Assembly (NCBI GenBank): GCA_964484485.1
Contig: CAZAGD010000033.1
Span: 1,238-65,237 of the forward strand
Source: an uncultured Syntrophaceae bacterium
Lineage (GTDB): Bacteria > Desulfobacterota > SM23-61
DNA: 64,000 nucleotides
Reading direction: 5' to 3'
The notes under the pieces were generated by a model. The model had not been told where the DNA came from and searched no databases. It was given only the letters and a program-made list of their open reading frames with translations. The translations under genes and the position numbers were made by a program. Shown here one piece after another: positions 1 to 14,880 of this stretch (position 1 is its first letter; every line of letters starts with the position of its first letter).

Positions 1-145
1 AAAATGAAGGGAGGATATTCTTATGCAATTCTTGCATTAATGAGTTGGGAACAAGTGAAGAAATATTCTCCCTTATTCCTGGAAAAAGGATTGATCTTTC
101 AAAGAACAAAGTTATGTCTAGGAAGAGGTAAGGGGGGTTAAAAAA

Positions 146-364
146 ATGGGAAGGAAAATGGTTAAATTTTTTCATGATATTAGAGACTGGGAATTAGAAG
201 AAGTGTTGCAGAAATTTTTAGATAAGGGGCACGAGATTATATCTATACATTATGCGGTCTGTTGGGCTGTGCATGCTCCGTTCGAGGTATATAGTGAAGA
301 TGGAAAGGTTTCTGATAGCTATCCTTTTCATAGTATATTGGTTATTTTCGAAGAGAAAAAATGA
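146..364 (+). CDS. hypothetical small protein (72 aa) overlapping by 4 nt with downstream DUF3987-like gene
   Basis: ORF track; GGGG RBS-like run upstream; translationally coupled (ATGA overlap) to 361..1527; no recognisable motif. Confidence 0.35.
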   Translation: MGRKMVKFFHDIRDWELEEVLQKFLDKGHEIISIHYAVCWAVHAPFEVYSEDGKVSDSYPFHSILVIFEEKK

Positions 365-1527
365 GTTTATTACAATTAGCCAACCCTAAAGATGGGTTTA
401 TTAAAGATTTTATAGAGGTGCTAAATAAGAAAACTGATGCTTCGTTAGCATTTAAGCTTTTCTGCGGAATAGTGCTTGTGGGAGTAGCCCTGGGTAGGAG
501 AATCTGGTTTCCCTATGGAGGGAAAAACCTTTATCCTAATCTTTATGTTTGCCTGTTGGGGGAGAGTGGTATTTCCCGGAAGAGCACCTGCATAAATATC
601 GTGAAGAAGGTTATTAGTCATTTTGAAGAGAATTTAATTGTCTCAGATCAATATTCGCCAGAGCGTTTATTTAAAGACTTATCAGAAAGGTCGCAAGCTA
701 TCTTTCTATATTCTGAATTTGCTGCTGTTTTAAAGTATTTTGAAAGGAGTTATATGGTGGGGATGAAAGAGTGTTTAACTGAGCTTTACGACTGTCCTCC
801 AAAATATAGGCGGAGGTTGCAGAAGGAAGAGATAGTTATTAAGGACCCTGTTATTTCTATTCTGGCGGGGAGCACTCCTGAATGGTTATTTGCAAATATG
901 ACAGAAGAAGATATCCTGGGTGGATTCTTTGGCAGGTTTATTTATGTTATGGAGAGGGAGAGAAAAGAGTTTATTGCTTTGCCGCCTGGAATTAAAGATG
1001 GAGAAATTCACGATTTAGCTGGGCAATTGAATGAGATAAGGCAGGTGGAGGGAGAGGTAAAGATTGATAAGGTGGAGTGGGTATTTGAAAGATTTTCCCA
1101 AGAGAATTATGAAGAAATTTTAAAATCCGGGTCCTCTGGGATAAAAAAAGCTTTTTTAGTGCGGCTCCCTGAGTTTCTCCTCAAAATAGCGATGATTTAC
1201 CATTTTTCTAATTCCAGGGTGCTTAATATTTCGCCTGAAGCGATGAATAATGCTTTGGCTTTAGTAGGATATGTTAAAGAGGCATTAAAGAAGTCTTTGG
1301 AAGAGGACCTGGCCTTGACGCCTGAAATGAGGAACAGGATTAAAATACTTAAGCTTATCCAAAAGGAGCCAGGAATAGAACATGGAAAGCTTTTAAGGAA
1401 TAGCAATTTAACTTCTAAGCAGGTTCATGCCATAATTAATCATCTATTGGAGGAAGGGTCTATTCATATTGAAGGAAAGGGGAGAAAGAATGACCCGAAG
1501 AGGTATTTTGCTGTAAATTTTCTATAA
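361..1527 (+). CDS. DUF3987-like P-loop protein (phage/plasmid primase-helicase associated replication protein) with C-terminal winged-helix
   Basis: Motifs LLGESGISRKST (degenerate Walker A), ILAGSTPEW, GGFFGRF typical of DUF3987/VirE-like replication proteins of satellites and plasmids; C-terminal wHTH-like segment; lies in integrase/tRNA-bounded element. Confidence 0.55.
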   Translation: MSLLQLANPKDGFIKDFIEVLNKKTDASLAFKLFCGIVLVGVALGRRIWFPYGGKNLYPNLYVCLLGESGISRKSTCINIVKKVISHFEENLIVSDQYSPERLFKDLSERSQAIFLYSEFAAVLKYFERSYMVGMKECLTELYDCPPKYRRRLQKEEIVIKDPVISILAGSTPEWLFANMTEEDILGGFFGRFIYVMERERKEFIALPPGIKDGEIHDLAGQLNEIRQVEGEVKIDKVEWVFERFSQENYEEILKSGSSGIKKAFLVRLPEFLLKIAMIYHFSNSRVLNISPEAMNNALALVGYVKEALKKSLEEDLALTPEMRNRIKILKLIQKEPGIEHGKLLRNSNLTSKQVHAIINHLLEEGSIHIEGKGRKNDPKRYFAVNFL

Positions 1528-1611
1528 GTAATTGATAATATTATATATTTTAAAAATCGAATTCGCGCGCGATGTATACCCCCTGTAAGTTACTATAAGA
1601 GTAAGGGATTT

Positions 1612-1790
1612 TTATACGAACGAATTTATTGAATATTTTCTTTAATAATTTCAATATGTTATGCGTTCGTAAATGCGTTCGTAAAATATCTTAGTTACGA
1701 ACGCATTTTTCTGAGTAATATCATAGAATTAGGCTAAAAATTCGTTAAAATGAGTTCGTTCACTTCTCCCTCAAACGAATTCAAAGAAAT
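1612..1790. repeat. AT-rich iteron-like repeat block (TGCGTTCGTAA x2 direct plus inverted TTACGAACGCA; AACGAATTT / AAATTCGTT inverted pair)
   Basis: Read directly: 1659-1683 two tandem ATGCGTTCGTAA, 1696-1708 inverted copy, 1615-1626 ACGAACGAATTT vs 1739-1751 AAATTCGTTAAAA; located immediately downstream of the rep-like gene. Confidence 0.5.
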
Positions 1791-1892
1791 GTCAATTTTT
1801 TGACAAATGAAATTATATTCCTTATATCGCGTGCAAAGATCCTATTTTTTTGATTGACTTAAAACATATGGAAAAATAGAATACCTTAAAAG

Positions 1893-2005
1893 GTTTAAAC
1901 CACCCCCTCCCCGGGTATTAATAAATGGAGTCTCGAAAAGTCTTTCGGATAAAAAATAGTCTTTGAATCTGTCTTCATTCTTCCATGGTGGATTTACTCG
2001 AGATT
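1893..2005 (+). pseudogene. truncated duplicate of the 5' end (and upstream leader) of the AbrB-like gene at 3707
   Basis: ~85% nt identity between 1925-2005 and 3707-3790 (ATGGAGTCTCG.AA.GTCTTT..GATAAAAAATAGT.TTTG.AT.TGTCTTC.TTCTTC.ATGGT...GAGATTA.AA); upstream leaders also similar; copy at 1925 hits a stop after 13 codons. Confidence 0.6.
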
Positions 2006-2057
2006 AGAAGATAGATTATGCGTGAGTTAGCATATTACAAGAAAAGAGGAAAAAATA

Positions 2058-2690
2058 ATGTCTACCCGCTTAGCAGAAATATTCGCAGATGATAAACTAA
2101 CTGAGAAGATAAAAAGACGCTTACCTTACTTATTTCAGCTTGCAGAGTTAGAAAGTTCAAGAGCGGGTAAAACTGGAATGGAAGTTGGCTCAATTAGAGA
2201 AAGGATAATAGTGGCTTTGTTGATTTATAAATTCGGAGAAGAAAATGTGGAAACAGAAATACCGATTACTGAATCAGAAATAGATGCAAAATTATTTGGG
2301 GAGCCTATATCAATCAAAACGATCACGGGTAAGAATTTGGGCGGTGTCAAACTTATATGGACTGTGGATGCTCAGAAGGCAAAAGAATTTCGTGAGAACT
2401 ATTATCCCCATTGCGATATTTTACTTGTTCAAATCAACTGGAATGATAAAGGGGGATTTTATTACATCCCATTATCAACTCAGAAAATGCTTTTTAATAG
2501 AATAGGCAGAGAAAACTATATCAAGCTTCCAAAACCTGGAACAAATCCCAGAGGTGTAGAAATTACTAAAGAGGCATTATCCAGTTTAATTGAAGCAGAA
2601 GATTCAAAAAGCATCTCAATAATCTGGCAAAGAACAAAAATTGAGTTCAATTGCTATAAAAGATGGGTGGATCTATGGAGGGAAGAATAA
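2058..2690 (+). CDS. putative type II restriction endonuclease (R subunit of R-M pair)
   Basis: 210-aa ORF whose stop overlaps the RBS of the downstream methyltransferase; no other family recognisable; assignment by genomic context only. Confidence 0.4.
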   Translation: MSTRLAEIFADDKLTEKIKRRLPYLFQLAELESSRAGKTGMEVGSIRERIIVALLIYKFGEENVETEIPITESEIDAKLFGEPISIKTITGKNLGGVKLIWTVDAQKAKEFRENYYPHCDILLVQINWNDKGGFYYIPLSTQKMLFNRIGRENYIKLPKPGTNPRGVEITKEALSSLIEAEDSKSISIIWQRTKIEFNCYKRWVDLWREE

Positions 2691-2691
2691 A

Positions 2692-3636
2692 ATGGGATTT
2701 AATAGAAGAAAATATGGCACAAAAACAAGTGCATTCGGTTCTCCGGGAAGAATTAATCATGATTCCACTCCTTTTTATACAAGCAAATTGTATGAGGAAT
2801 TGCCCAAAGAGGAGGCAGTCGAATATGTAGAAAATGCCGTTCCATCAGAGTTTATAGATAAAATCATTTGTAAATCTAGTGAAAAAATGAATGAATTACC
2901 TGATAATAGCATTCATTTGATGGTTACATCTCCTCCTTACAATGTAGGAAAAGAATATGACGAGAATCTCACTTTAAATGAATACAGGTCATTCTTAAAA
3001 AGAGTTTGGAGTGAAGTTAGAAGAGTGCTCGTTCCTGGCGGGAGAGTATGTATCAATATTGCTAATCTTGGAAGAAAACCATACATCCCGCTTCATGCTT
3101 TTATAATTGATGATATGCTTGATTTAGGTTTTTTAATGAGAGGAGAAATAATTTGGAATAAAGCATCAAGTGGTAGTCCTTCAACTGCTTGGGGTAGCTG
3201 GCTTTCTGCTAAGAACCCAACGCTTAGGGACATTCACGAATACATTTTGGTCTTTTCGAAAGGAATGTTTTCTAGAGGAAGTTATGTCAAAAGAAAAAGC
3301 ACCATTTCTAAGGAAGAATTTCTTGAGTTTACGAAAAGTGTATGGACATTTGCTGCTGAGCCAGCATCGAAAATAGGACATCCAGCGCCTTTTCCAGTTG
3401 AATTACCTTACAGATTAATTCAGCTTTACACTTTTGAAGGTGAAGTTGTTTTAGACCCTTTTGTAGGAAGCGGGCAAGCTGCAATTGCAGCGATAAAAAC
3501 AAGACGCCACTATGTTGGATACGATATAAACCGAGAATATGTAAAATTGGCGGAAAAAAGAATTAAAGAATTTTCATTAGCGTTTAATGCACCTAAATTG
3601 TTTGAATTCAGAGAGAAATCAGGCAATTTGATATAA
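2692..3636 (+). CDS. DNA methyltransferase, beta-class amino-MTase (N4-cytosine or N6-adenine)
   Basis: Motif IV SPPY (MVTSPPYNVGKEY) preceding motif I FVGSGQ (DPFVGSGQAAIA) = beta-class order; GGAGGG RBS 9 nt upstream of ATG 2692 (ORF track start 2641 probably too early). Confidence 0.85.
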   Translation: MGFNRRKYGTKTSAFGSPGRINHDSTPFYTSKLYEELPKEEAVEYVENAVPSEFIDKIICKSSEKMNELPDNSIHLMVTSPPYNVGKEYDENLTLNEYRSFLKRVWSEVRRVLVPGGRVCINIANLGRKPYIPLHAFIIDDMLDLGFLMRGEIIWNKASSGSPSTAWGSWLSAKNPTLRDIHEYILVFSKGMFSRGSYVKRKSTISKEEFLEFTKSVWTFAAEPASKIGHPAPFPVELPYRLIQLYTFEGEVVLDPFVGSGQAAIAAIKTRRHYVGYDINREYVKLAEKRIKEFSLAFNAPKLFEFREKSGNLI

Positions 3637-3706
3637 TAATTTGGCTTTAAAGGCTTAAATCACCTCAGTCCCGAAGGCTAGAGAGACTGAATGAGGAAAG
3701 AGAGGT

Positions 3707-4099
3707 ATGGAGTCTCGGAAGGTCTTTAAGATAAAAAATAGTTTTTGCATTTGTCTTCCTTCTTCGATGGTAGAGATGCTTGAGATTAAAAAAGGTGATA
3801 GGTGTCAGTTTCTCTTGCTTCCTGGTTATGGGCTTTTAGTTAAGAAAGAAGGAATGGCCGATAGCTTTCATGCGCAAATGGAGGCTATTTCTGATTTGAG
3901 GCAGGAAGCTGATAATATTTTTCATGACTTTAGGCGTAAGGCACGGGGTTTGGTTCACCAGTTTGGTTTTAGGTTAGCTGAAGAATATATTAGTGCCTTA
4001 TTGGATAATTTAAAACGTCCTGCCCAAAGTTTTTTGGCAGAAGAGCAAAAGGTTCCCGACCTTCTTCTAAGTGGGGAAGAAGAAAAGAAGAAGAGTTGA
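3707..4099 (+). CDS. AbrB/MazE (SpoVT-AbrB swapped-hairpin) family DNA-binding protein
   Basis: N-terminus VFKIKNSFCICLPSSMVEMLEIKKGDRCQFLL matches swapped-hairpin beta-barrel pattern; helical C-terminal extension. Confidence 0.45.
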   Translation: MESRKVFKIKNSFCICLPSSMVEMLEIKKGDRCQFLLLPGYGLLVKKEGMADSFHAQMEAISDLRQEADNIFHDFRRKARGLVHQFGFRLAEEYISALLDNLKRPAQSFLAEEQKVPDLLLSGEEEKKKS

Positions 4100-4323
4100 G
4101 CTGAATAAAAAAGGATAGAAAAGATGAAATCATCTTTTAAACTAATCTGCGCAGAAGACCCTAAGATATTAGGAATTGAGAAAAAGAATGGAGATTGGGA
4201 TTAAAACGCATTAGCTGAGCACATAAAAAAATGTGCGGCCTGAAGAGTTTATAAAGAGCAATTAAAGAAGGATTTAGCTAAATTACTAAGGATAGGCTCC
4301 CATAAAAAGAAAGGGCGAGTAAA

Positions 4324-4557
4324 ATGAATAAGAAGCAAAGATGGGTTTTGATTATAGGTGGAATAATCATTGCACAAATGTTATTAAATCCGCCTTTTGA
4401 ATATAAAACTTTAAATGGCGTAACTTATAGTGGGGGATATGGTTGTCTTTTCACGGATTATGGGAGTGGAAAAGGTGTTAATTTAAGTTTATTATTTACG
4501 CAATGGATAGGAGTAATTTTAATATGTGCTATTTTATGGATTGTTTTTAAAAATTGA
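4324..4557 (+). CDS. small membrane protein (2 predicted TM helices)
   Basis: 77 aa, two hydrophobic stretches (VLIIGGIIIAQMLL; GVILICAILWIVF). Confidence 0.35.
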   Translation: MNKKQRWVLIIGGIIIAQMLLNPPFEYKTLNGVTYSGGYGCLFTDYGSGKGVNLSLLFTQWIGVILICAILWIVFKN

Positions 4558-4639
4558 GAATAAAGAATTAAAGCAGTAATTTAGGGGAAAAAGCCATGCA
4601 TTTTTAATCTCTTCTCTTTCCCCAACTAATTATAGAAGG

Positions 4640-5360
4640 GGGTTGAGGGGGAAACGAATTTAGCTGGGGTAGGGGGACTCCAGCGTTAAGAATTTGTTTC
4701 CCCTCATAGCTGCCGCCGCTTTCACCAATGAAAATAGAATGAATGCTAAAGCGGCGAGACCCCGTCCGCCATGATTTTGACGGCTTAGCTGAATAATTAA
4801 GAGAAGAGCGAGAATAAAATTAAATTAAGCTAAAACTTTTCCTTCCCGCAAGGCTCAAGGATTGAGCCCATGGAGAAGGGAAAGTTTTCTCCTTTACAAA
4901 ATTTAGAATAAAGAGGCGGTTTAAAATTGTGCTGGGGGTATCAGGGCTTTGCTTAACCCACTTGGGTGGGCAATTTAGGAAGGGGGTTAAGTGGCCTGAT
5001 ACCAGCCAATTTTGCCTCTTTATTTTAAATTTTGTTTTTTTGGGGGTTGGGTGGGAAAAGAAAAAATTAATCGCGGGGCTTGGGTAAGTGAAAAAATACC
5101 TTTGTTCCGCCCAAAGGCGAAAAAAGCAAAAAGGCTTGGTAGGCCGAGGCTCTGGGTTAAGCCCCCTCCCGCTCCCTATCGGGATCCGGATCCTTGAGGG
5201 CTTAACCTTTCGTCGTTACCGACTCAACCACTCGCCCTTGCCTACAATGCTCCCACCTGGTCGCATTGCTTAACGGCAATGGCTCGGGCAGACCCTCGGC
5301 CTACCAAGCCTTTTTGCCGATCAAAAAAACTTTTTTTCTTACCCAAGCCCCGCAAAAGCT
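4640..5360. ncRNA. candidate large structured RNA or origin-like region: chain of hairpins with nested near-perfect long inverted repeats
   Basis: No ORF >60 aa other than two implausible ones. Hairpins 4644-4704, 4713-4757, 4846-4891. Perfect 11-bp IR 4908-4918/5015-5025 with nested 9- and 8-bp stems. Outer 16-23-bp IR 5073-5096/5330-5353 enclosing perfect 24-bp IR 5126-5151/5293-5311. Recurrent GCTTAAC/GTTAAGC motif. Confidence 0.3.
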
Positions 5361-5965
5361 GCGGCGGCCGCGGCCACATTTTTTTTAATTGAAATTAAAA
5401 CTTTTTAAAGAGAAGCAGTGTAGGATGTTATAAAGGTCTCTCCCAAACCGGGAAACCTCCGCTTACCAGAATAAAGGTAAAAAAGCTAAAAATTAAATTT
5501 TTCCTTTTTTAAGAAATAAGCGAAAGAGACTCGGGCTTAAATTATCGGATTAGCGCAAATATATAAATGCTATTCGAAAAAATGAGTGCGCCATTATACC
5601 AAATCAGTCTTAAAAGATTAGAGATTAGGCTTTAAAATTTGATACCTAACTCAATAATGCTTTTCAAAGAAGATATAAGGCATAGTCAAGTTATAAGTTC
5701 AAGGATTACCTTTAAGCGCTGAGATTTTTCCCGGGATGAATTGAGAAAAAAATTTCTTAAAAAAAAGGGTTCTTCCTTAATTTTGGGGGATGCTTTGATA
5801 TTGTCCGCCATAAAAAGTCTCGTCTAATGGGCTATTATTAAGCCGGGTATTCAAAAAAAATTATTTTTCTATCAAAAAATAATGCTTGACAAGAAAAAAT
5901 TAGTAAGTTATGCTTATAAGTAAGATAGGTATTTAAGATTTAGATATTATGGTGGGGGTGGATGA

Positions 5966-6124
5966 ATGAAAAAGGAAGAGAAAAAATCGAAATCAGTAAG
6001 GTTGCAGGTTCAGCTTGACCCAGAGATAATGAGAGCATTAAGAAGAAGGGCAGCCGATGAATTAAAGACAGTCAGGAAATTAATAATTGAATGGGTGCAG
6101 AGCTGGTCTAAAGAAAAGAAATAG
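5966..6124 (+). CDS. small RHH/Arc-like putative DNA-binding protein (52 aa)
   Basis: ATG 5966 preceded by GGTGGGGGTGG; translation MKKEEKKSKSVRLQVQLDPEIMRALRRRAADELKTVRKLIIEWVQSWSKEKK has beta-strand then two helices typical of ribbon-helix-helix; below ORF-track cutoff. Confidence 0.35.
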   Translation: MKKEEKKSKSVRLQVQLDPEIMRALRRRAADELKTVRKLIIEWVQSWSKEKK

Positions 6125-6157
6125 GATTGGCGGGTGGGCCTGGAAAGGAGGTCCATA

Positions 6158-6280
6158 ATGAAAAAAAGAATAAAGAAAATATTAAGGGAAATCAAAGAGC
6201 AATGCCGTATTGTTATGGAGGATCGGCGGATAAAAGAGAACGATTGGATTGTGGCTCGATTGGGGTTGCATAATATTTAG
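6158..6280 (+). CDS. small basic protein (40 aa), possible partner of RHH ORF
   Basis: AAAGGAGG RBS 7 nt upstream of ATG 6158; MKKRIKKILREIKEQCRIVMEDRRIKENDWIVARLGLHNI. Confidence 0.25.
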   Translation: MKKRIKKILREIKEQCRIVMEDRRIKENDWIVARLGLHNI

Positions 6281-6474
6281 AGCTCTGCGATCTTGGGGAA
6301 AAAGAAGTTGAAAAAGATCCTTGAATAAAAAATTAATGGCGCCACCCGGAACCGGCTAAGGAACCAAGGAGCGCCCGGGCAGGCATGCCAATTAACTGGC
6401 CCACCCACCATTTTATTTATAGCACGGATTGATATGGGAGAGCAATAAAAAATGGAAAAAAATGGAGGTAGTCC

Positions 6475-7539
6475 ATGGGTGTTTATAAAAGGGGGAATGT
6501 TTATTACATAGATTATTATTTTGAGGGAAATAGGATTCGGGAGCGAGTGGGTAAGAATAAAAGACAAGCTGAGTTGGCTCTTGCTTCAAGGAAAGGGGAG
6601 ATTGCTCAAGGGAAATTTAATCTTGAGCGAGTAAAAAAGACTCCTTATTTTGAAGAATTTGCCAAGGAATATTTAGATTGGGCCAAAATCAATCATCGCT
6701 CTTGGGAAAGAATGGATGCAGTGCGGATAAAATGTTTATCGAATTTTTTTTCAGGGAGGCGCTTAAATGAAATCACGCCTTGGCTCATAGAGAAATTTAA
6801 ATCAGAGAGGAAAGATAAAGTAAAGCCGGCGACAATTAACCGAGAGTTGGCCGTGCTCTCGGCCATGCTTTCTCGGGCGATAGAATGGGGGAAGCTTAAT
6901 GAGCATCCTATGAAAGGTGGAAAGGTTAAAAAACTAAGAGAAGATGGCCATAAAGAAAAGATATTAACTGAAGAAGAAGAGAGTCGGCTTTTATCTGTGT
7001 GTAGAGGATGGTTTAAAGAAATGGTGGTTATAGCCTTAGATACCGGAATGCGTCTATCAGAGATAATTGAATTAAAAAAAGAGGATATTGACCTTAATAA
7101 TCATTTAATAAAAGTGAAACATACCAAAAGCGGCAGAGAGAGGAAAATTCCCTTAACTGAAAGAGTATTCTCCATACTGGCAGAGAGGATTAAAGAAGTT
7201 AAAGATTCGGAATTTATTTTTGCCAAAGGAAATGGAAATAAGTTATGGGCTGTAAGGAGTGCCTTTCTTAGGGCTTGTAAGAGAGCTGGTTTTGTTGGTT
7301 TGAGGTTTCATGATCTGCGGCATACCTTTGCTACTCGCTTAGTAACTTCCGGAATTGACCTGGCCACGGTGCAAAAATTACTTGGTCATGAAAATATTCA
7401 AATGACCTTGAGATATTCGCATCCAAGGTCTGAGGATATGAAGCGGGCCATAAAAATTCTTGAGAAGAATGCGGAGAGCAGTCACAAAATGGTCACAAAA
7501 GATGAAATGAAATTATTAAATCTTTGTATAACCCCTTGA
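6475..7539 (+). CDS. int: tyrosine site-specific integrase (phage integrase family)
   Basis: C-terminal catalytic motifs [11 protein letters not shown] and [14 protein letters not shown] (R-H-R-Y); N-terminal arm/SAM-like domain; ends 7 nt from tRNA 3' end. Confidence 0.9.
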
Positions 7540-7545
7540 AATTAC

Positions 7546-7622
7546 TGGCGCGCCCAGCCCGACTCGAACGGGCGACCTACGGATTCGTAGTCCGGCGCTC
7601 TATCCAACTGAGCTATGGGCGC
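7546..7622 (-). tRNA. tRNA-Arg (anticodon ACG)
   Basis: Reverse complement GCGCCCATAGCTCAGTTGGATAGAGCGCCGGACTACGAATCCGTAGGTCGCCCGTTCGAGTCGGGCTGGGCGCGCCA folds as cloverleaf: 7-bp acceptor, D-arm GCTC/GAGC, anticodon loop CTACGAA, T-arm GCCCG/CGGGC, encoded CCA. Confidence 0.9.
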
Positions 7623-8112: not shown

Positions 8113-8805
8113 GTGATGTCCATGCTTTTATCTTCTTTCCTCGAAGATTTAAGCAGGGAAATATTAAGAATATATGGGCAAATTGATCAAAAAGTTGCTG
8201 CTTTCCAGAAGACTACAGGAATAAAATGCCTTTCCGGGTGTGGCCAATGTTGCGCCTCGGGAAAGGTCAAGATTACGCCCCTGGAGTTTATTCCCTTAGC
8301 CCAGCACTTATTCCAGCGCGGAGAAGCAGATGCCTGGTGGTCATATTTAATTGAAAACCAGGAAGGAACTTGTGTCTTTTTCCGGGAAGATCTAACTAAA
8401 TTTGAGAATGGGCATTGTACAGTATATCCCTGGCGGGCTGCTACTTGCCGTTTATATGGGTTTGGAGTAAAACAAAATAAATACGGGAATCTCGAACCAA
8501 TCACCTGCCAATTTTTGAAAAATGATTTTTATAAGGCAATCAAGGACTTGGATAAAACTAATTCAAAAGATCTATGCCCGAGCTATGATTCTTTTATGGT
8601 TCAAATCGCCTCTCTTGACCCCCTCTTAAGTAAAAACCCCCTACCTGTAAATCAGGCAATTGCTAAGGGTTTAGAAAAATACGCCTTAGTTTTTCAAATA
8701 AATTCTTCCAGAGATTATTTCAATCCTCCAGAATCCGTTCCCTATTTCAATGGCCCTGATTTAACTGAAGGAAATATAAAAGGAAATTCAAGAAGCGAAA
8801 ATTAA
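8113..8805 (+). CDS. YkgJ/UPF0153-family Fe-S or zinc-chelating domain protein
   Basis: CLSGCGQCCASGK (CxxCxxCC) plus downstream Cys cluster GHCTVYPWRAATCRLYGF. Confidence 0.5.
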   Translation: MMSMLLSSFLEDLSREILRIYGQIDQKVAAFQKTTGIKCLSGCGQCCASGKVKITPLEFIPLAQHLFQRGEADAWWSYLIENQEGTCVFFREDLTKFENGHCTVYPWRAATCRLYGFGVKQNKYGNLEPITCQFLKNDFYKAIKDLDKTNSKDLCPSYDSFMVQIASLDPLLSKNPLPVNQAIAKGLEKYALVFQINSSRDYFNPPESVPYFNGPDLTEGNIKGNSRSEN

Positions 8806-9654
8806 GATGACCAGCCCCGCCATTAATAAAAGGCATCCTGGCCAAACCTCTTTAACCCATTGGGTTTCTTTAAAGAATAAAGAACCGACGATCAAAGTCA
8901 TGGGAATCTCAATCTGTTTTACAGCCTCTACATAAGCGGCCACGGATTTAATATAGCCAAAACTGCCAAATATGGTAGCAAAGGCGGCAAAAAACCCCAG
9001 GCTTAAAAAGTAAACAAAATAGCGAGGAAGGAGATACAGATGCTTTGCTGATTGGTAAATAACTATGGGAAAACATATCGCTGAAGCAAAAATATAATTG
9101 GTTAGAGTAGAAAAGAAAGGATCGCCTAATTGGGCAGTTTTCTTAAAAAGGAGAATCGTCGGAGTAAGAGTTAAGGCGGCCAGAAGGGCATAGCGCATTC
9201 CTTTGTCCCGGATTAGAAGAAGCAAGGGCTCGAGCAAAGAGACCCGAGCCTGTCTTATATTTAGTAAATAAATACCCAAAAAACTAATAATTATCCCCAG
9301 GCCTCCCCAAAAATTCACGTTTTCATCTAAGAAAATTACGCCGCAGATGGCCAAAAAAATTACTTGCAGCTTCCAAATAGCTACGGTAACGGAGATGGCC
9401 CCATATTTAAAAGACTTAGATAAGAGAAGGGTGGAAAAGACCTGCATCAATCCAGCCAGAAAAGAATAAATCCAATAGTCCCTACCAACCTCAGGGAGGC
9501 CTTTAAGATAACTGGCGGCCAGAGCAAACGGCAGCAGAAAGAAAAACCTTCCCCAAACATTAATATATTCATCTAAACTATGCCCCAATTTTTTCATGGT
9601 AGCATTTCTGCCTACTTGGCATAAGGCAGAGGCTATGGCAAAAATCCACCACAT
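8788..9654 (-). CDS. EamA/DMT-superfamily membrane transporter
   Basis: 288 aa, ~10 hydrophobic helices, duplicated EamA-like halves. Confidence 0.55.
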   Translation of the reverse strand: MWWIFAIASALCQVGRNATMKKLGHSLDEYINVWGRFFFLLPFALAASYLKGLPEVGRDYWIYSFLAGLMQVFSTLLLSKSFKYGAISVTVAIWKLQVIFLAICGVIFLDENVNFWGGLGIIISFLGIYLLNIRQARVSLLEPLLLLIRDKGMRYALLAALTLTPTILLFKKTAQLGDPFFSTLTNYIFASAICFPIVIYQSAKHLYLLPRYFVYFLSLGFFAAFATIFGSFGYIKSVAAYVEAVKQIEIPMTLIVGSLFFKETQWVKEVWPGCLLLMAGLVILIFAS

Positions 9655-14336: not shown

Positions 14337-14499
14337 TTTAATCCCTTTTTTTCTAAATTGAGTTGATCTATCTTAATAAATTTGATCGAAGGGCGTCAAG
14401 GGAAAAAGGTTTCTGCCTTTTATTGCATCACTGAATGGTGGATGACATAGTAATCGAATTATTAGCTACTTTTGTTTTGGAAGGTTACGAGGCATTTTA

Positions 14500-14774
14500 T
14501 CTTAAGAGACTGGGTCGTAATTAATAAATGGCTAACTTTTGGTGAAGGAACCGGAGGCAGGCCAGAGGCAGGCCAGAGGCAGGCATTCATTCAGAATCAT
14601 GAGGCAGTGGCTTTTCCATAGGTACAGGCGGATTTAGAAGCTTGCTCAAATTGCTTAGTTTAACGATCCGCCCACTCTTTGCGGAAAATCGTTGACCGAT
14701 TTTGAACAGCTTCTTCTCCCGCCGATGCTTCTTCATTCATGCCTGCCTCTGGCCTGCCTCTGGCCTGCCTCCGG
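14500..14774. repeat. MITE-like element with ~38-bp terminal inverted repeats built from tandem GGCAGGCCAGAG units
   Basis: 14551-14592 CCGGAGGCAGGCCAGAGGCAGGCCAGAGGCAGGCATTCATTC is the reverse complement of 14743-14774; flank 14500-14550 is re-found (reverse complement) next to a solo copy at 39661-39745. Confidence 0.5.
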
Positions 14775-14839
14775 CCCTTTCTCGCCATGGCGACACAGTC
14801 TCTAATTTAAGAAGGAGTTGGGGGAGTTAGAGATTTTTT

Positions 14840-14880
14840 AATTTCTCGTAGGGCATGCCCTTGGGGCTTGCCGAACCCGC
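14840..14880. repeat. ~45-nt conserved intergenic repeat TTAATTTCTCGTAGGGCATGCCCTTGGGGCTTGCCGAACC (second copy at 59570..59612)
   Basis: Near-identical to 59570-59612 (TTAATTCCTCGTAGGGCCAGCCCTTGGGGCTTACCGAACC); both upstream of plus-strand genes. Confidence 0.45.

Follow-up and report, generated by a model that had tools for sequence, protein, structure and literature searches.

The first 7,545 positions of the DNA window analysed here (64,000 nucleotides, or 64 kb, of contig CAZAGD010000033.1) are, in our judgement, likely to be the right-hand part of an integrative element which its own tyrosine integrase has placed in the 3' part of a tRNA-Arg(ACG) gene, named here paralogue A. Its host belongs to the Thermodesulfobacteriota and is an uncultured inhabitant of hot-spring mats; the dataset JGI 3300022548 is a co-assembly of a hot-spring mat (PMC7490370). 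The element in tRNA-Arg is a real mobile element, probably active, self-replicating and small, and it carries a restriction-modification (R-M) system. Its status as a mobile element is supported by its deviating composition, by the integrase adjoining the tRNA gene and by the varying occupants of the site. The size known so far is at least 8.9 kb. Features are presented in Table 1 and contigs used for comparison are designated by L numbers.

Integration of the element into tRNA-Arg(ACG)

The tRNA-Arg(ACG) gene is the single tRNA gene that ARAGORN identifies in the 64-kb window. The integrase (int) stop codon ends at position 7539, which leaves only 6 nt (7540-7545) before the intact tRNA gene with its encoded CCA. 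The catalytic R-H-R-Y set of the integrase, read in the translation, is kept (TGMR, HDLRH and LRYSH). All the main open reading frames (ORFs) of the element are intact and every credible gene within 1-7545 is located on the + strand. The GC content of this region is 37.3%, compared to 43.8% in the rest of the window and 41.0% in the lowest other 7.5-kb segment, and its tetranucleotide distance is 0.022 compared to a maximum of 0.015 among the other segments of that length; in both measures the base composition is that looked for in a tRNA-integrating island. The chromosome on the right encodes a Zn-ribbon protein, a CxxCxxCC protein, an EamA-family protein, a NUDIX protein and a 2-oxoacid:ferredoxin oxidoreductase, and this gene content is conserved on many contigs. 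Copies of the element which are 99.8-100% identical are present on contigs of seven assemblies from other datasets.

These results agree in most respects with a preliminary description of this DNA, which had placed a tyrosine integrase at the 3' end of tRNA-Arg(ACG), a switch to chromosomal genes on its right and the left end of the element outside the window, and which had listed a DUF3987-type replication protein, iterons and a complete R-M pair; all of these are borne out (Table 1). The comparison of composition that it had proposed puts 1-7545 outside the range of the other segments. Uniform composition together with a gene order fixed among relatives had been named as what would refute a mobile element, and this is contradicted by the deviating GC content and the varying site occupants. 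As to the direct repeat of the tRNA 3' segment which it had proposed to look for upstream, none is present in the upstream sequence recovered on L001 (below), and a 49-nt copy occurs on the junction contig L003.

The contig L003 (JGI 3300010308) matches the window from 6263 to 7594 and then diverges. Its order is the integrase stop, AATTAC, the sequence TGGCGCGCCCAGCCCGACTCGAACGGGCGACCTACGGATTCtTAGTCCG (3' 49 nt of the tRNA with one anticodon mismatch) and then 97 nt of unrelated AT-rich DNA. From this arrangement L003 appears to be either the attP of an excised circle or the junction of a tandem array, and either way it would delimit the recombining repeat. Classically, the identity block of elements that integrate in tRNA genes covers the anticodon stem-loop and everything 3' of it (PMC2853133). 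Candidate arm-type sites were picked by eye and are not statistically secure: TTTTGTGAC occurs twice in the P' arm, TTGTGAT in the arm of L003, and TGTGATA twice in the P' arm of the element on L009.

Table 1. Features of the integrative element and its target gene in the window (positions of the window)
Feature	Position	Strand	Basis
CxxC...CxxC (zinc-ribbon-like) 72-aa ORF, 3' part	1..131	+	starts 87 nt upstream of the window (L001 1141-1359 = window -87..131); faint Pfam zinc-ribbon matches only
72-aa ORF, function not assigned by any family match	146..364	+	overlaps rep start (ATGA); identical on 4 metagenome contigs
Replication protein (Rep), DUF3987 AAA+ (MCM-like, SF6) helicase core + C-terminal winged helix-turn-helix, 388 aa	361..1527	+	PF13148 6e-18, PF13412 (HTH_24) 2e-6
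Putative replication origin, iterons in AT-rich DNA directly after rep	1528..1860		repeats described in the text
Upstream direct-repeat copy, stop-riddled copy of leader + first ~30 codons of the 130-aa gene	1877..2010	+	repeat search D1 (104 nt, 77%), alignment, translation
Type II restriction endonuclease, ThaI family (prototype recognises CGCG)	2058..2690	+	PF15514 1.3e-98, model 1-203/203; PADLOC REase_II 7e-92
DNA methyltransferase, N4/N6 (beta) class, TSPPY motif	2692..3636	+	PF01555 1.7e-47, model 1-221/221; PADLOC MTase_II 1e-138; L001 gene call starts at ATG 2692
Downstream direct-repeat copy = functional leader + 5' end of the 130-aa gene	3641..3795	+	repeat search, alignment
130-aa protein, weak AbrB/MazE (SpoVT-type) N-terminal domain, candidate regulator	3707..4099	+	MazE_antitoxin E 0.015; TIGR02609 1.3e-5, below cut-off
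77-aa hydrophobic (two-segment) small protein	4324..4557	+	gene called on L001
Hairpin-dense non-coding block, ~0.8 kb	4590..5400		H1 ~4605-4815; H2 4832-4890; H3 4896-5035; H4 5073-5353; + strand intrinsic terminator 5358-5385
Back-to-back promoter-like sites + palindrome, candidate operator/promoter of the RHH-orf40-int operon	5860..5914		+ 5886-5914 TTGACA-17-TATGCT; - 5892-5863; palindrome 5860-5883
52-aa Arc/CopG-like ribbon-helix-helix (RHH) protein, weak call	5966..6124	+	phrog_2639 'Arc-like repressor' 2.9e-4; Pfam RHH families E ~0.09
40-aa ORF (orf40) between RHH gene and int	6158..6280	+	gene called on L002; L100 has a 58-aa ORF in the matching place
Tyrosine integrase, 354 aa, weak N-terminal arm-binding + SAM-like domains	6475..7539	+	PF00589 6e-40; Arm-DNA-bind_2 3.5e-4; phrog_1 2e-77; PDB 5c6k 1e-26
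att identity block, 49-nt tRNA 3' part (anticodon stem to CCA)	7546..7594	-	also beside the integrase on L003, one anticodon mismatch
tRNA-Arg(ACG), paralogue A, encoded CCA, integration target	7546..7622	-	ARAGORN; Rfam tRNA 64.4 bits

The chromosomal flank, with or without the EamA gene, was found on many contigs, most of which break at or near the tRNA gene. At least four different elements occupy tRNA A across populations, namely the window type and those of L009, L103 and L105, and together with the variants on L004 and L005 they constitute alternative occupancy of tRNA A in related populations. The L009 element has a different integrase and comes from a metagenome-assembled genome (MAG) whose flanking chromosome is 89% identical. 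All elements at tRNA A have the sequence GTAATTTC (7545-7538 in the window) right after the CCA and diverge beyond it; it was read after the tRNA in L009, L103, L105 and L107 as well as in the window (7538-7545). The integrase of L105 is only 24% identical to that of the window, yet 17 nt after the CCA are shared between the two. Probably the attB identity block extends beyond the tRNA, or else the elements replace one another by recombination there. On L004 and L005, which come from other samples, the integrase is 100% identical and positions 1-29 are unrelated to the window DNA upstream of 6446, 29 nt before the start codon; the elements are therefore mosaic, and 6446 is a recombination breakpoint between element variants. 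Beside the hotspot, an EamA-family transporter gene lies at 8788-9654 of the window, flanked by the genes for the NUDIX and CxxCxxCC proteins; it is also found in L006, L102, L107 and L110 and is absent from L103, L104, L105, L106 and L108, whose oxidoreductase protein is otherwise identical. Its presence or absence is a strain-level indel.

The species has a second tRNA-Arg(ACG) gene, paralogue B, which differs from A at 3 positions and is identical to it over the last 33 nt. A 27:43 mismatch is present in the anticodon stem of both paralogues (C.U in A, U.C in B). On five contigs paralogue B is found in an array consisting of serS, tRNA-Ser, tRNA-Ser, a 100-aa ORF, tRNA-Arg B, tadA, tRNA-Ser, tRNA-Ser and dnaX. 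It adjoins the upstream side of tadA (L094 8887-9569; also L095, L096, L097, L098 and L011), and TadA is the deaminase whose bacterial substrate is tRNA-Arg(ACG). This linkage of tRNA-Arg and tadA recurs in a relative whose TadA is 73% identical (L011) and is ancestral. A scan of metagenomes with a TadA fragment gave relatives of at most 78% identity and recovered no attL. On L094 (7966-8370), a second copy exists of the first 36 nt of a tRNA-Ser(TGA) gene, and the two copies are separated by a GC-rich repeat and by a gene for a small GIY-YIG nuclease (PF01541 on L097); this looks like a homing-type insertion in the anticodon region, with an intact tRNA restored downstream.

On the contig L006 (ENA ERZ27245602 k141_123163, 3565-3700) the Zn-ribbon gene and the body of tRNA A are fused to the tadA flank that belongs to paralogue B, and the join falls precisely at the CCA. 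Its downstream flank is 100% identical to L094-L096, and TGCCTCC follows the CCA, in contrast to GTAATTTC in every element-bearing contig. We rejected L006 as an empty site, given the conserved locus of paralogue B on five contigs and the GTAATTTC junction common to the other tRNA-A contigs. It is probably a recombinant between A and B or an assembly chimera across the shared 33 nt, judging from its two flanks. The junction may also have arisen by integrase-mediated recombination between the tRNA-Arg paralogues, which would rearrange the chromosome by inversion or deletion.

On the left, the element continues on L001 (ENA ERZ27245602), which matches window 1-4635 at 99.8% identity and reaches 1228 bp further upstream. 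Encoded in these 1228 bp are a cut 103-aa ORF, two HTH_17 genes, a 36-aa ORF and the CxxC...CxxC ORF of 72 aa that enters the window. The HTH_17 (AlpA/Xis-like) genes are located 200-760 bp left of the window and encode proteins of 70 aa (1e-4) and 84 aa (5e-11), both with PHROG excisionase matches. L001 begins to diverge from the window at 4623-4628, just short of its own end. A second copy of the tRNA 3' segment (attL) was found neither within the 64-kb window nor in the 1228 bp upstream on L001, and therefore the left end lies more than 1.2 kb beyond the window; the source contig (66,871 bp) holds at most 2.9 kb more on that side. The attL signature expected upstream is TGGCGCGCCCAGCCCGACTCGAACGGGCGACCTACGGATTC[G/T]TAGTCCG followed by AAATAGGGGAGTTATAAG. 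When genome contigs were searched with Rep and with the CxxCxxCC protein of the flank, no related genomes were obtained, the 72-aa and 130-aa ORF proteins as queries gave only shorter metagenome contigs, and the cut 103-aa ORF had no homologous proteins. In IMG/VR, scans for exact and for protein matches gave nothing close to int, rep, the att + GTAATTTC junction or the L003 arm.

Replication module, restriction-modification cargo and hairpin block

The rep gene product matches PHROG 'DNA primase/helicase' families up to 3e-31. An AlphaFold2 model built on 13 homologues (pLDDT, the predicted local distance difference test, 85.5) has MCM2-7 subunits as its best Foldseek matches (E 3e-7), which cover the AAA+ core and the C-terminal winged helix. 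From this model, Rep is predicted to be an MCM-like AAA+ helicase with a winged helix. For a DUF3987 protein which replicates a mobile genetic element integrated in a tRNA gene, 5'-3' helicase activity has been demonstrated experimentally (PMC11724360), and the MCM-like fold of our model agrees with this activity. Rep has the conserved motifs G-x-S-x3-RK[ST] and SEF. Its family comprises 8194 cluster representatives at E <= 1e-3; stand-alone forms of ~390 aa are the commonest. In closer relatives the DUF3987 domain is fused with DnaG-type zinc-finger/Toprim primase domains. The possibility that the two 72-aa ORFs preceding rep are a split primase zinc finger was ruled out, as they show no similarity to these primase-fused relatives. 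No family match was obtained for the 146-364 ORF product in Pfam and PHROG scans.

Directly after rep, the sequence GCGTTCGTAA occurs exactly three times within 42 bp, twice as direct copies (1663-1672 and 1675-1684) and once inverted (1695-1704), and nowhere else in the 64 kb; degenerate copies are present at 1614-1623, 1741-1748 and 1755-1762. In relatives with Rep identity of 41-47%, iterons also follow rep (GATTCGTTCGCAC three times in L099, AAAGTCGTTCGCA twice in L100/L101) and the core GTTCG is common to them. Iteron arrays directly after a rep gene are likewise present in L112, a more distant viral contig. An iteron origin would be recognised by at least three short repeats beside an initiator gene, in AT-rich context and conserved in relatives, and all of these are found here. 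Since the position of the iterons and the GTTCG core are kept in relatives, the putative Rep-iteron origin is the best-supported functional assignment of the element; binding of the iterons by Rep would follow from this arrangement.

The genes of the R-M pair are 1 nt apart and both products match their family models over the full length, so that the pair is a complete Type II system. Specificity for CGCG is predicted purely from membership of the ThaI family. The element contains 6 CGCG sites against an expectation of 5.9 and thus shows no depletion of them. The TSPPY motif of the methyltransferase is presumably that of N4-cytosine methylation, a modification that would plausibly fit a hot-spring organism. 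PADLOC identified no other defence gene in the element, and the 'defence island' of the preliminary description was thus an overstatement for a single R-M cargo.

The R-M pair (2058-3636) is bracketed by direct repeats of ~130-150 nt with 73-77% identity, and a sigma70-like promoter was found by promoter scan at 1854-1882, just ahead of the upstream copy. R-M units inserted with long target duplication, also linked to integrase at tRNA genes, were described by Furuta et al. 2010 (PMC2853133). Of the formal features of such an insertion, these are present: R and M genes inside, an insert smaller than 20 kb and repeats longer than 30 bp. The compact ~1.6-kb R-M unit, located on an integrase-bearing tRNA element, also resembles the published ones. 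However, the repeats are 73-77% identical compared to mostly above 90% in the published cases, one repeat copy is a pseudogene fragment, and no uninserted allele was recovered to prove insertion; among the contigs, no R-M-free variant of the element was found.

The remaining small genes of the element lie downstream of the R-M pair. For the two regulators, AbrB-like and RHH-like, of the preliminary description, the ORFs stand and the family calls remain weak, with sub-threshold matches only. L100 has an RHH_10 gene (4.5e-5) upstream of its integrase, in a position matching the 52-aa ORF, and the sites at 5860-5914 may serve as operator and promoter of the RHH-orf40-int operon. The 77-aa protein (4324-4557) has no family match in Pfam, PHROG and PADLOC scans.

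Between these genes no credible ORF exists in the region 4560-5960, and most of its left part is occupied by a non-coding block which the preliminary description had called repeat-dense. The block is dense in inverted repeats and hairpins and not in direct repeats; an origin by tandem duplication was rejected, as only short weak direct matches were found. Compared to shuffled sequences, the minimum free energy of 4590-5400 has a z-score of -9 on the + strand and -17 on the - strand, and this strong folding is due to several long imperfect hairpins (inverted repeats I1-I3). H3 favours the + strand by 11 kcal/mol, with 7 vs 0 G.U pairs and a U-run after it, whereas H4 favours the - strand by 23 kcal/mol, with 7 vs 1 G.U pairs and a U-rich run after it on that strand. 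Neither an Rfam family above noise nor a blastn match to plasmids or phages was found for the block, and the window contains no second copy of it, so that evidence of a MITE or multi-copy repeat was not obtained; other assemblies break inside it, at 4635 and 5217. Of the eight GGTTAAGY sites in the 64 kb, four are located in H3 and H4 (4951-5207), where they make up two inverted pairs, and the inner stems of these two hairpins are therefore similar (GCTTAACCC/GGGTTAAG). Just one more long inverted repeat exists in the window, at 14544-14781 in the intergenic gap 14337-14867; its 57-nt arms are 86% complementary, 124 nt apart and composed of three GGCAGGCCAGA-type units.

The strand-biased hairpins, the terminator and the promoters suggest convergent structured transcripts. 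It is tempting to propose that the block gives rise to two large structured RNAs that are strand-specific and converge on each other, one with H1-H3 (+ strand) and one with H4 (- strand, from the promoter back-to-back with the RHH-int promoter), which would form a previously undescribed module of RNA-based control or helper exploitation in a satellite-like element; we consider this proposal quite unlikely to be correct as it stands.

Relation to known elements and alternative explanations

A conserved gene order was found in relatives whose Rep is 41-47% identical (L099, L100 and L101), where an HTH_17 gene, small ORFs, rep and iterons follow one another in that order. These contigs span 4.6-7.4 kb and contain small ORFs, HTH_17, rep and int alone. 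These relatives also show the module of RHH gene, small ORF and int, and the integrase of L100 is 58% identical to that of the window. In L100 the two modules are divergent and adjacent, whereas in the window element they are co-directional with the cargo between them.

The combination of an integrase, an AlpA protein and a DUF3987 protein defines a 'hitcher' class which has so far been known mainly from Proteobacteria and Firmicutes. For phage-inducible chromosomal minimalist islands (PICMI), the mandatory markers of the detection model are int (PF00589), AlpA (PF05930/PF12728) and a primase (DUF3987/DUF5906) (PMC10803314). The same trio of int, AlpA and DUF3987 is reported by SatelliteFinder as 'type C' phage-inducible chromosomal island (PICI), with the reservation of its authors that such hits may include functional or defective satellites or other mobile elements (PMC10085698). 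The window element contains the whole PICMI core trio, with HTH_17 (PF12728) located on L001. It also resembles PICMI and P4-like satellites in being small, with few genes, large non-coding regions and one defence system (PMC10803314, PMC10085698), and direct repeats left by site-specific integration, as in PICMI, would be expected at its two ends. In contrast to PICMI, which integrate downstream of fis in Vibrionaceae/Enterobacteria, it is located in tRNA-Arg(ACG) of a Thermodesulfobacteriota host, has two HTH_17 genes, an RHH gene before int and a size of at least 8.9 kb, and is known from sequence alone.

Similarities extend to two further groups. As in the replication module of Staphylococcus aureus pathogenicity islands (SaPI) and PICI, an initiator-helicase gene is directly followed by iterons that flank AT-rich DNA, and the iteron core is conserved among relatives; unlike their Pri-Rep, the helicase here is a DUF3987 MCM-like protein without a primase domain, and neither a Stl-type master repressor nor a packaging module was recognised in the element. 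The mobile elements associated with prokaryotic Argonaute (pAgo) that carry the primase-polymerase AgaPP and the PriCT-DUF3987 helicase AgaPH (PMC11724360) are also found in tRNA genes and likewise combine an integrase and a replicative DUF3987 helicase with HTH proteins and cargo for defence. Compared to them the window element is much smaller, has no archaeo-eukaryotic primase (AEP) primase-polymerase or PriCT domain and carries a Type II R-M system in place of pAgo.

For its choice between a satellite and an integrative-mobilisable island, the preliminary description can be followed in so far as the int, AlpA and DUF3987 core matches the satellite models; genes of hijacking, packaging or relaxase function were not seen. 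None of the PICI/P4 hijacking or packaging genes (terS, ppi, cpm, capsid; sid, psu, delta, epsilon) is present among the ORFs of the 8.8 kb known, in Pfam and PHROGs, and genes for a relaxase, a coupling protein or a type IV secretion system likewise have no Pfam/PHROG match there.

Several observations weigh against an element integrated by its own integrase and kin to satellites. Its genes are co-directional, with int last and adjoining the att site, which differs from PICMI, P4 and PICI. The case for a satellite consists of the core-gene trio, and neither a helper phage nor a packaging signal or a gene for hijacking was recognised. No verified empty tRNA A site is found among the contigs, where only L006 looked empty, and L003 could be the junction of a tandem array and not a circle. 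The attL and the left flank were not recovered, hence size and full gene content are not fixed, and the RHH and AbrB assignments are sub-threshold and correspondingly weak.

Among the alternatives, an integrative plasmid or mobilisable element would be transferred by conjugation or mobilisation, with the hairpin block as an origin of transfer (oriT) or a single-strand origin/promoter. The autonomous replication genes with their iteron origin and the absence of any phage-hijacking gene would suit such an element, and so would the imperfect hairpins of 140 and 281 nt, which have a counterpart at just one other locus of the 64 kb and which we take to resemble the single-stranded-DNA-active elements of conjugative plasmids. 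However, no relaxase, coupling protein or known oriT is present (an oriT is not recognisable by sequence here), the G.U asymmetry of H3 and H4 points to selection at the RNA level, on opposite strands, and not at the DNA level, and the core trio is the one used for satellite detection. We therefore regard this explanation as unlikely.

An integrated element of satellite kind is also preferred to a temperate prophage of full size, of which the window would contain the integrase/replication end and the DNA to its left the genes for structure, lysis and packaging. The left end is indeed beyond the recovered sequence, PHROG families match the rep, int and HTH_17 proteins, and rep relatives at 26-32% identity are found in phage replication modules on IMG/VR contigs of 15-58 kb (for example L115, with Erf, exonuclease, HNH and primase-polymerase). 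But at most 2.9 kb more is left of the window on the source contig, the 8.8 kb known contain no structural or packaging match, the closer relatives L099, L100 and L101 show only their small gene set over 4.6-7.4 kb, and IMG/VR has no close DNA or protein match to int or rep, which makes a prophage very unlikely. The last alternative, an immobile, decaying remnant island fixed at the tRNA with junction contigs that are assembly artefacts, is most improbable, for even with the attL missing from the window and L001, hybrid or chimeric joins at the tRNA in L006 and a degenerate pseudogene fragment flanking the R-M pair, the main ORFs are intact and the int catalytic residues kept, near-identical copies exist in seven assemblies while the related MAG with an 89% identical chromosome has another integrase, the site occupants vary, and L003 is a specific 49-nt junction of the anticodon-stem-to-3'-end type and not a random join.

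Proposed life cycle and implications

The features assigned above to an integrative, satellite-like element can be arranged into a possible life cycle, in which anatomy and comparison lend good support to the integration and excision mechanism and to the putative Rep-iteron origin. While the element is integrated, the Arc-like RHH protein would control the promoter of RHH-orf40-int. During excision, Int together with one or both HTH_17 proteins may recombine the 49-nt tRNA-derived repeats, and a contig with an attP-type junction exists. In the circular form, the DUF3987 helicase would bind the GCGTTCGTAA iterons via its winged helix and open the AT-rich origin, and Rep may then recruit the priming and polymerase functions of the host. 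Because no capsid, packaging, relaxase or secretion genes are present in the part seen, the element would depend on a helper for its transfer, most likely on a phage, and would thus be a 'hitcher' like the PICMI, P4 and PICI-type satellites that have the core in common with it. The ThaI-type R-M system would be accessory cargo used for defence and/or addiction, and it seems plausible that the pair is a later arrival in the element, where it came to lie between two diverged copies of the AbrB-like gene's 5' end. The hairpin block may act as a cis element or as an RNA element.

To our knowledge, no satellites have been characterised in the Thermodesulfobacteriota. The element extends the int, AlpA and DUF3987 class to an uncultured hot-spring lineage of this phylum and reveals a tRNA-Arg gene as a busy integration hotspot for which several elements compete. 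It also provides a clean rep-iteron pair, whose iteron core is kept across 41-47% protein identity, and an R-M unit nested in such an element between long diverged direct repeats. These parts leave current concepts unchanged, and the hairpin block is the only part of the element that could change them.

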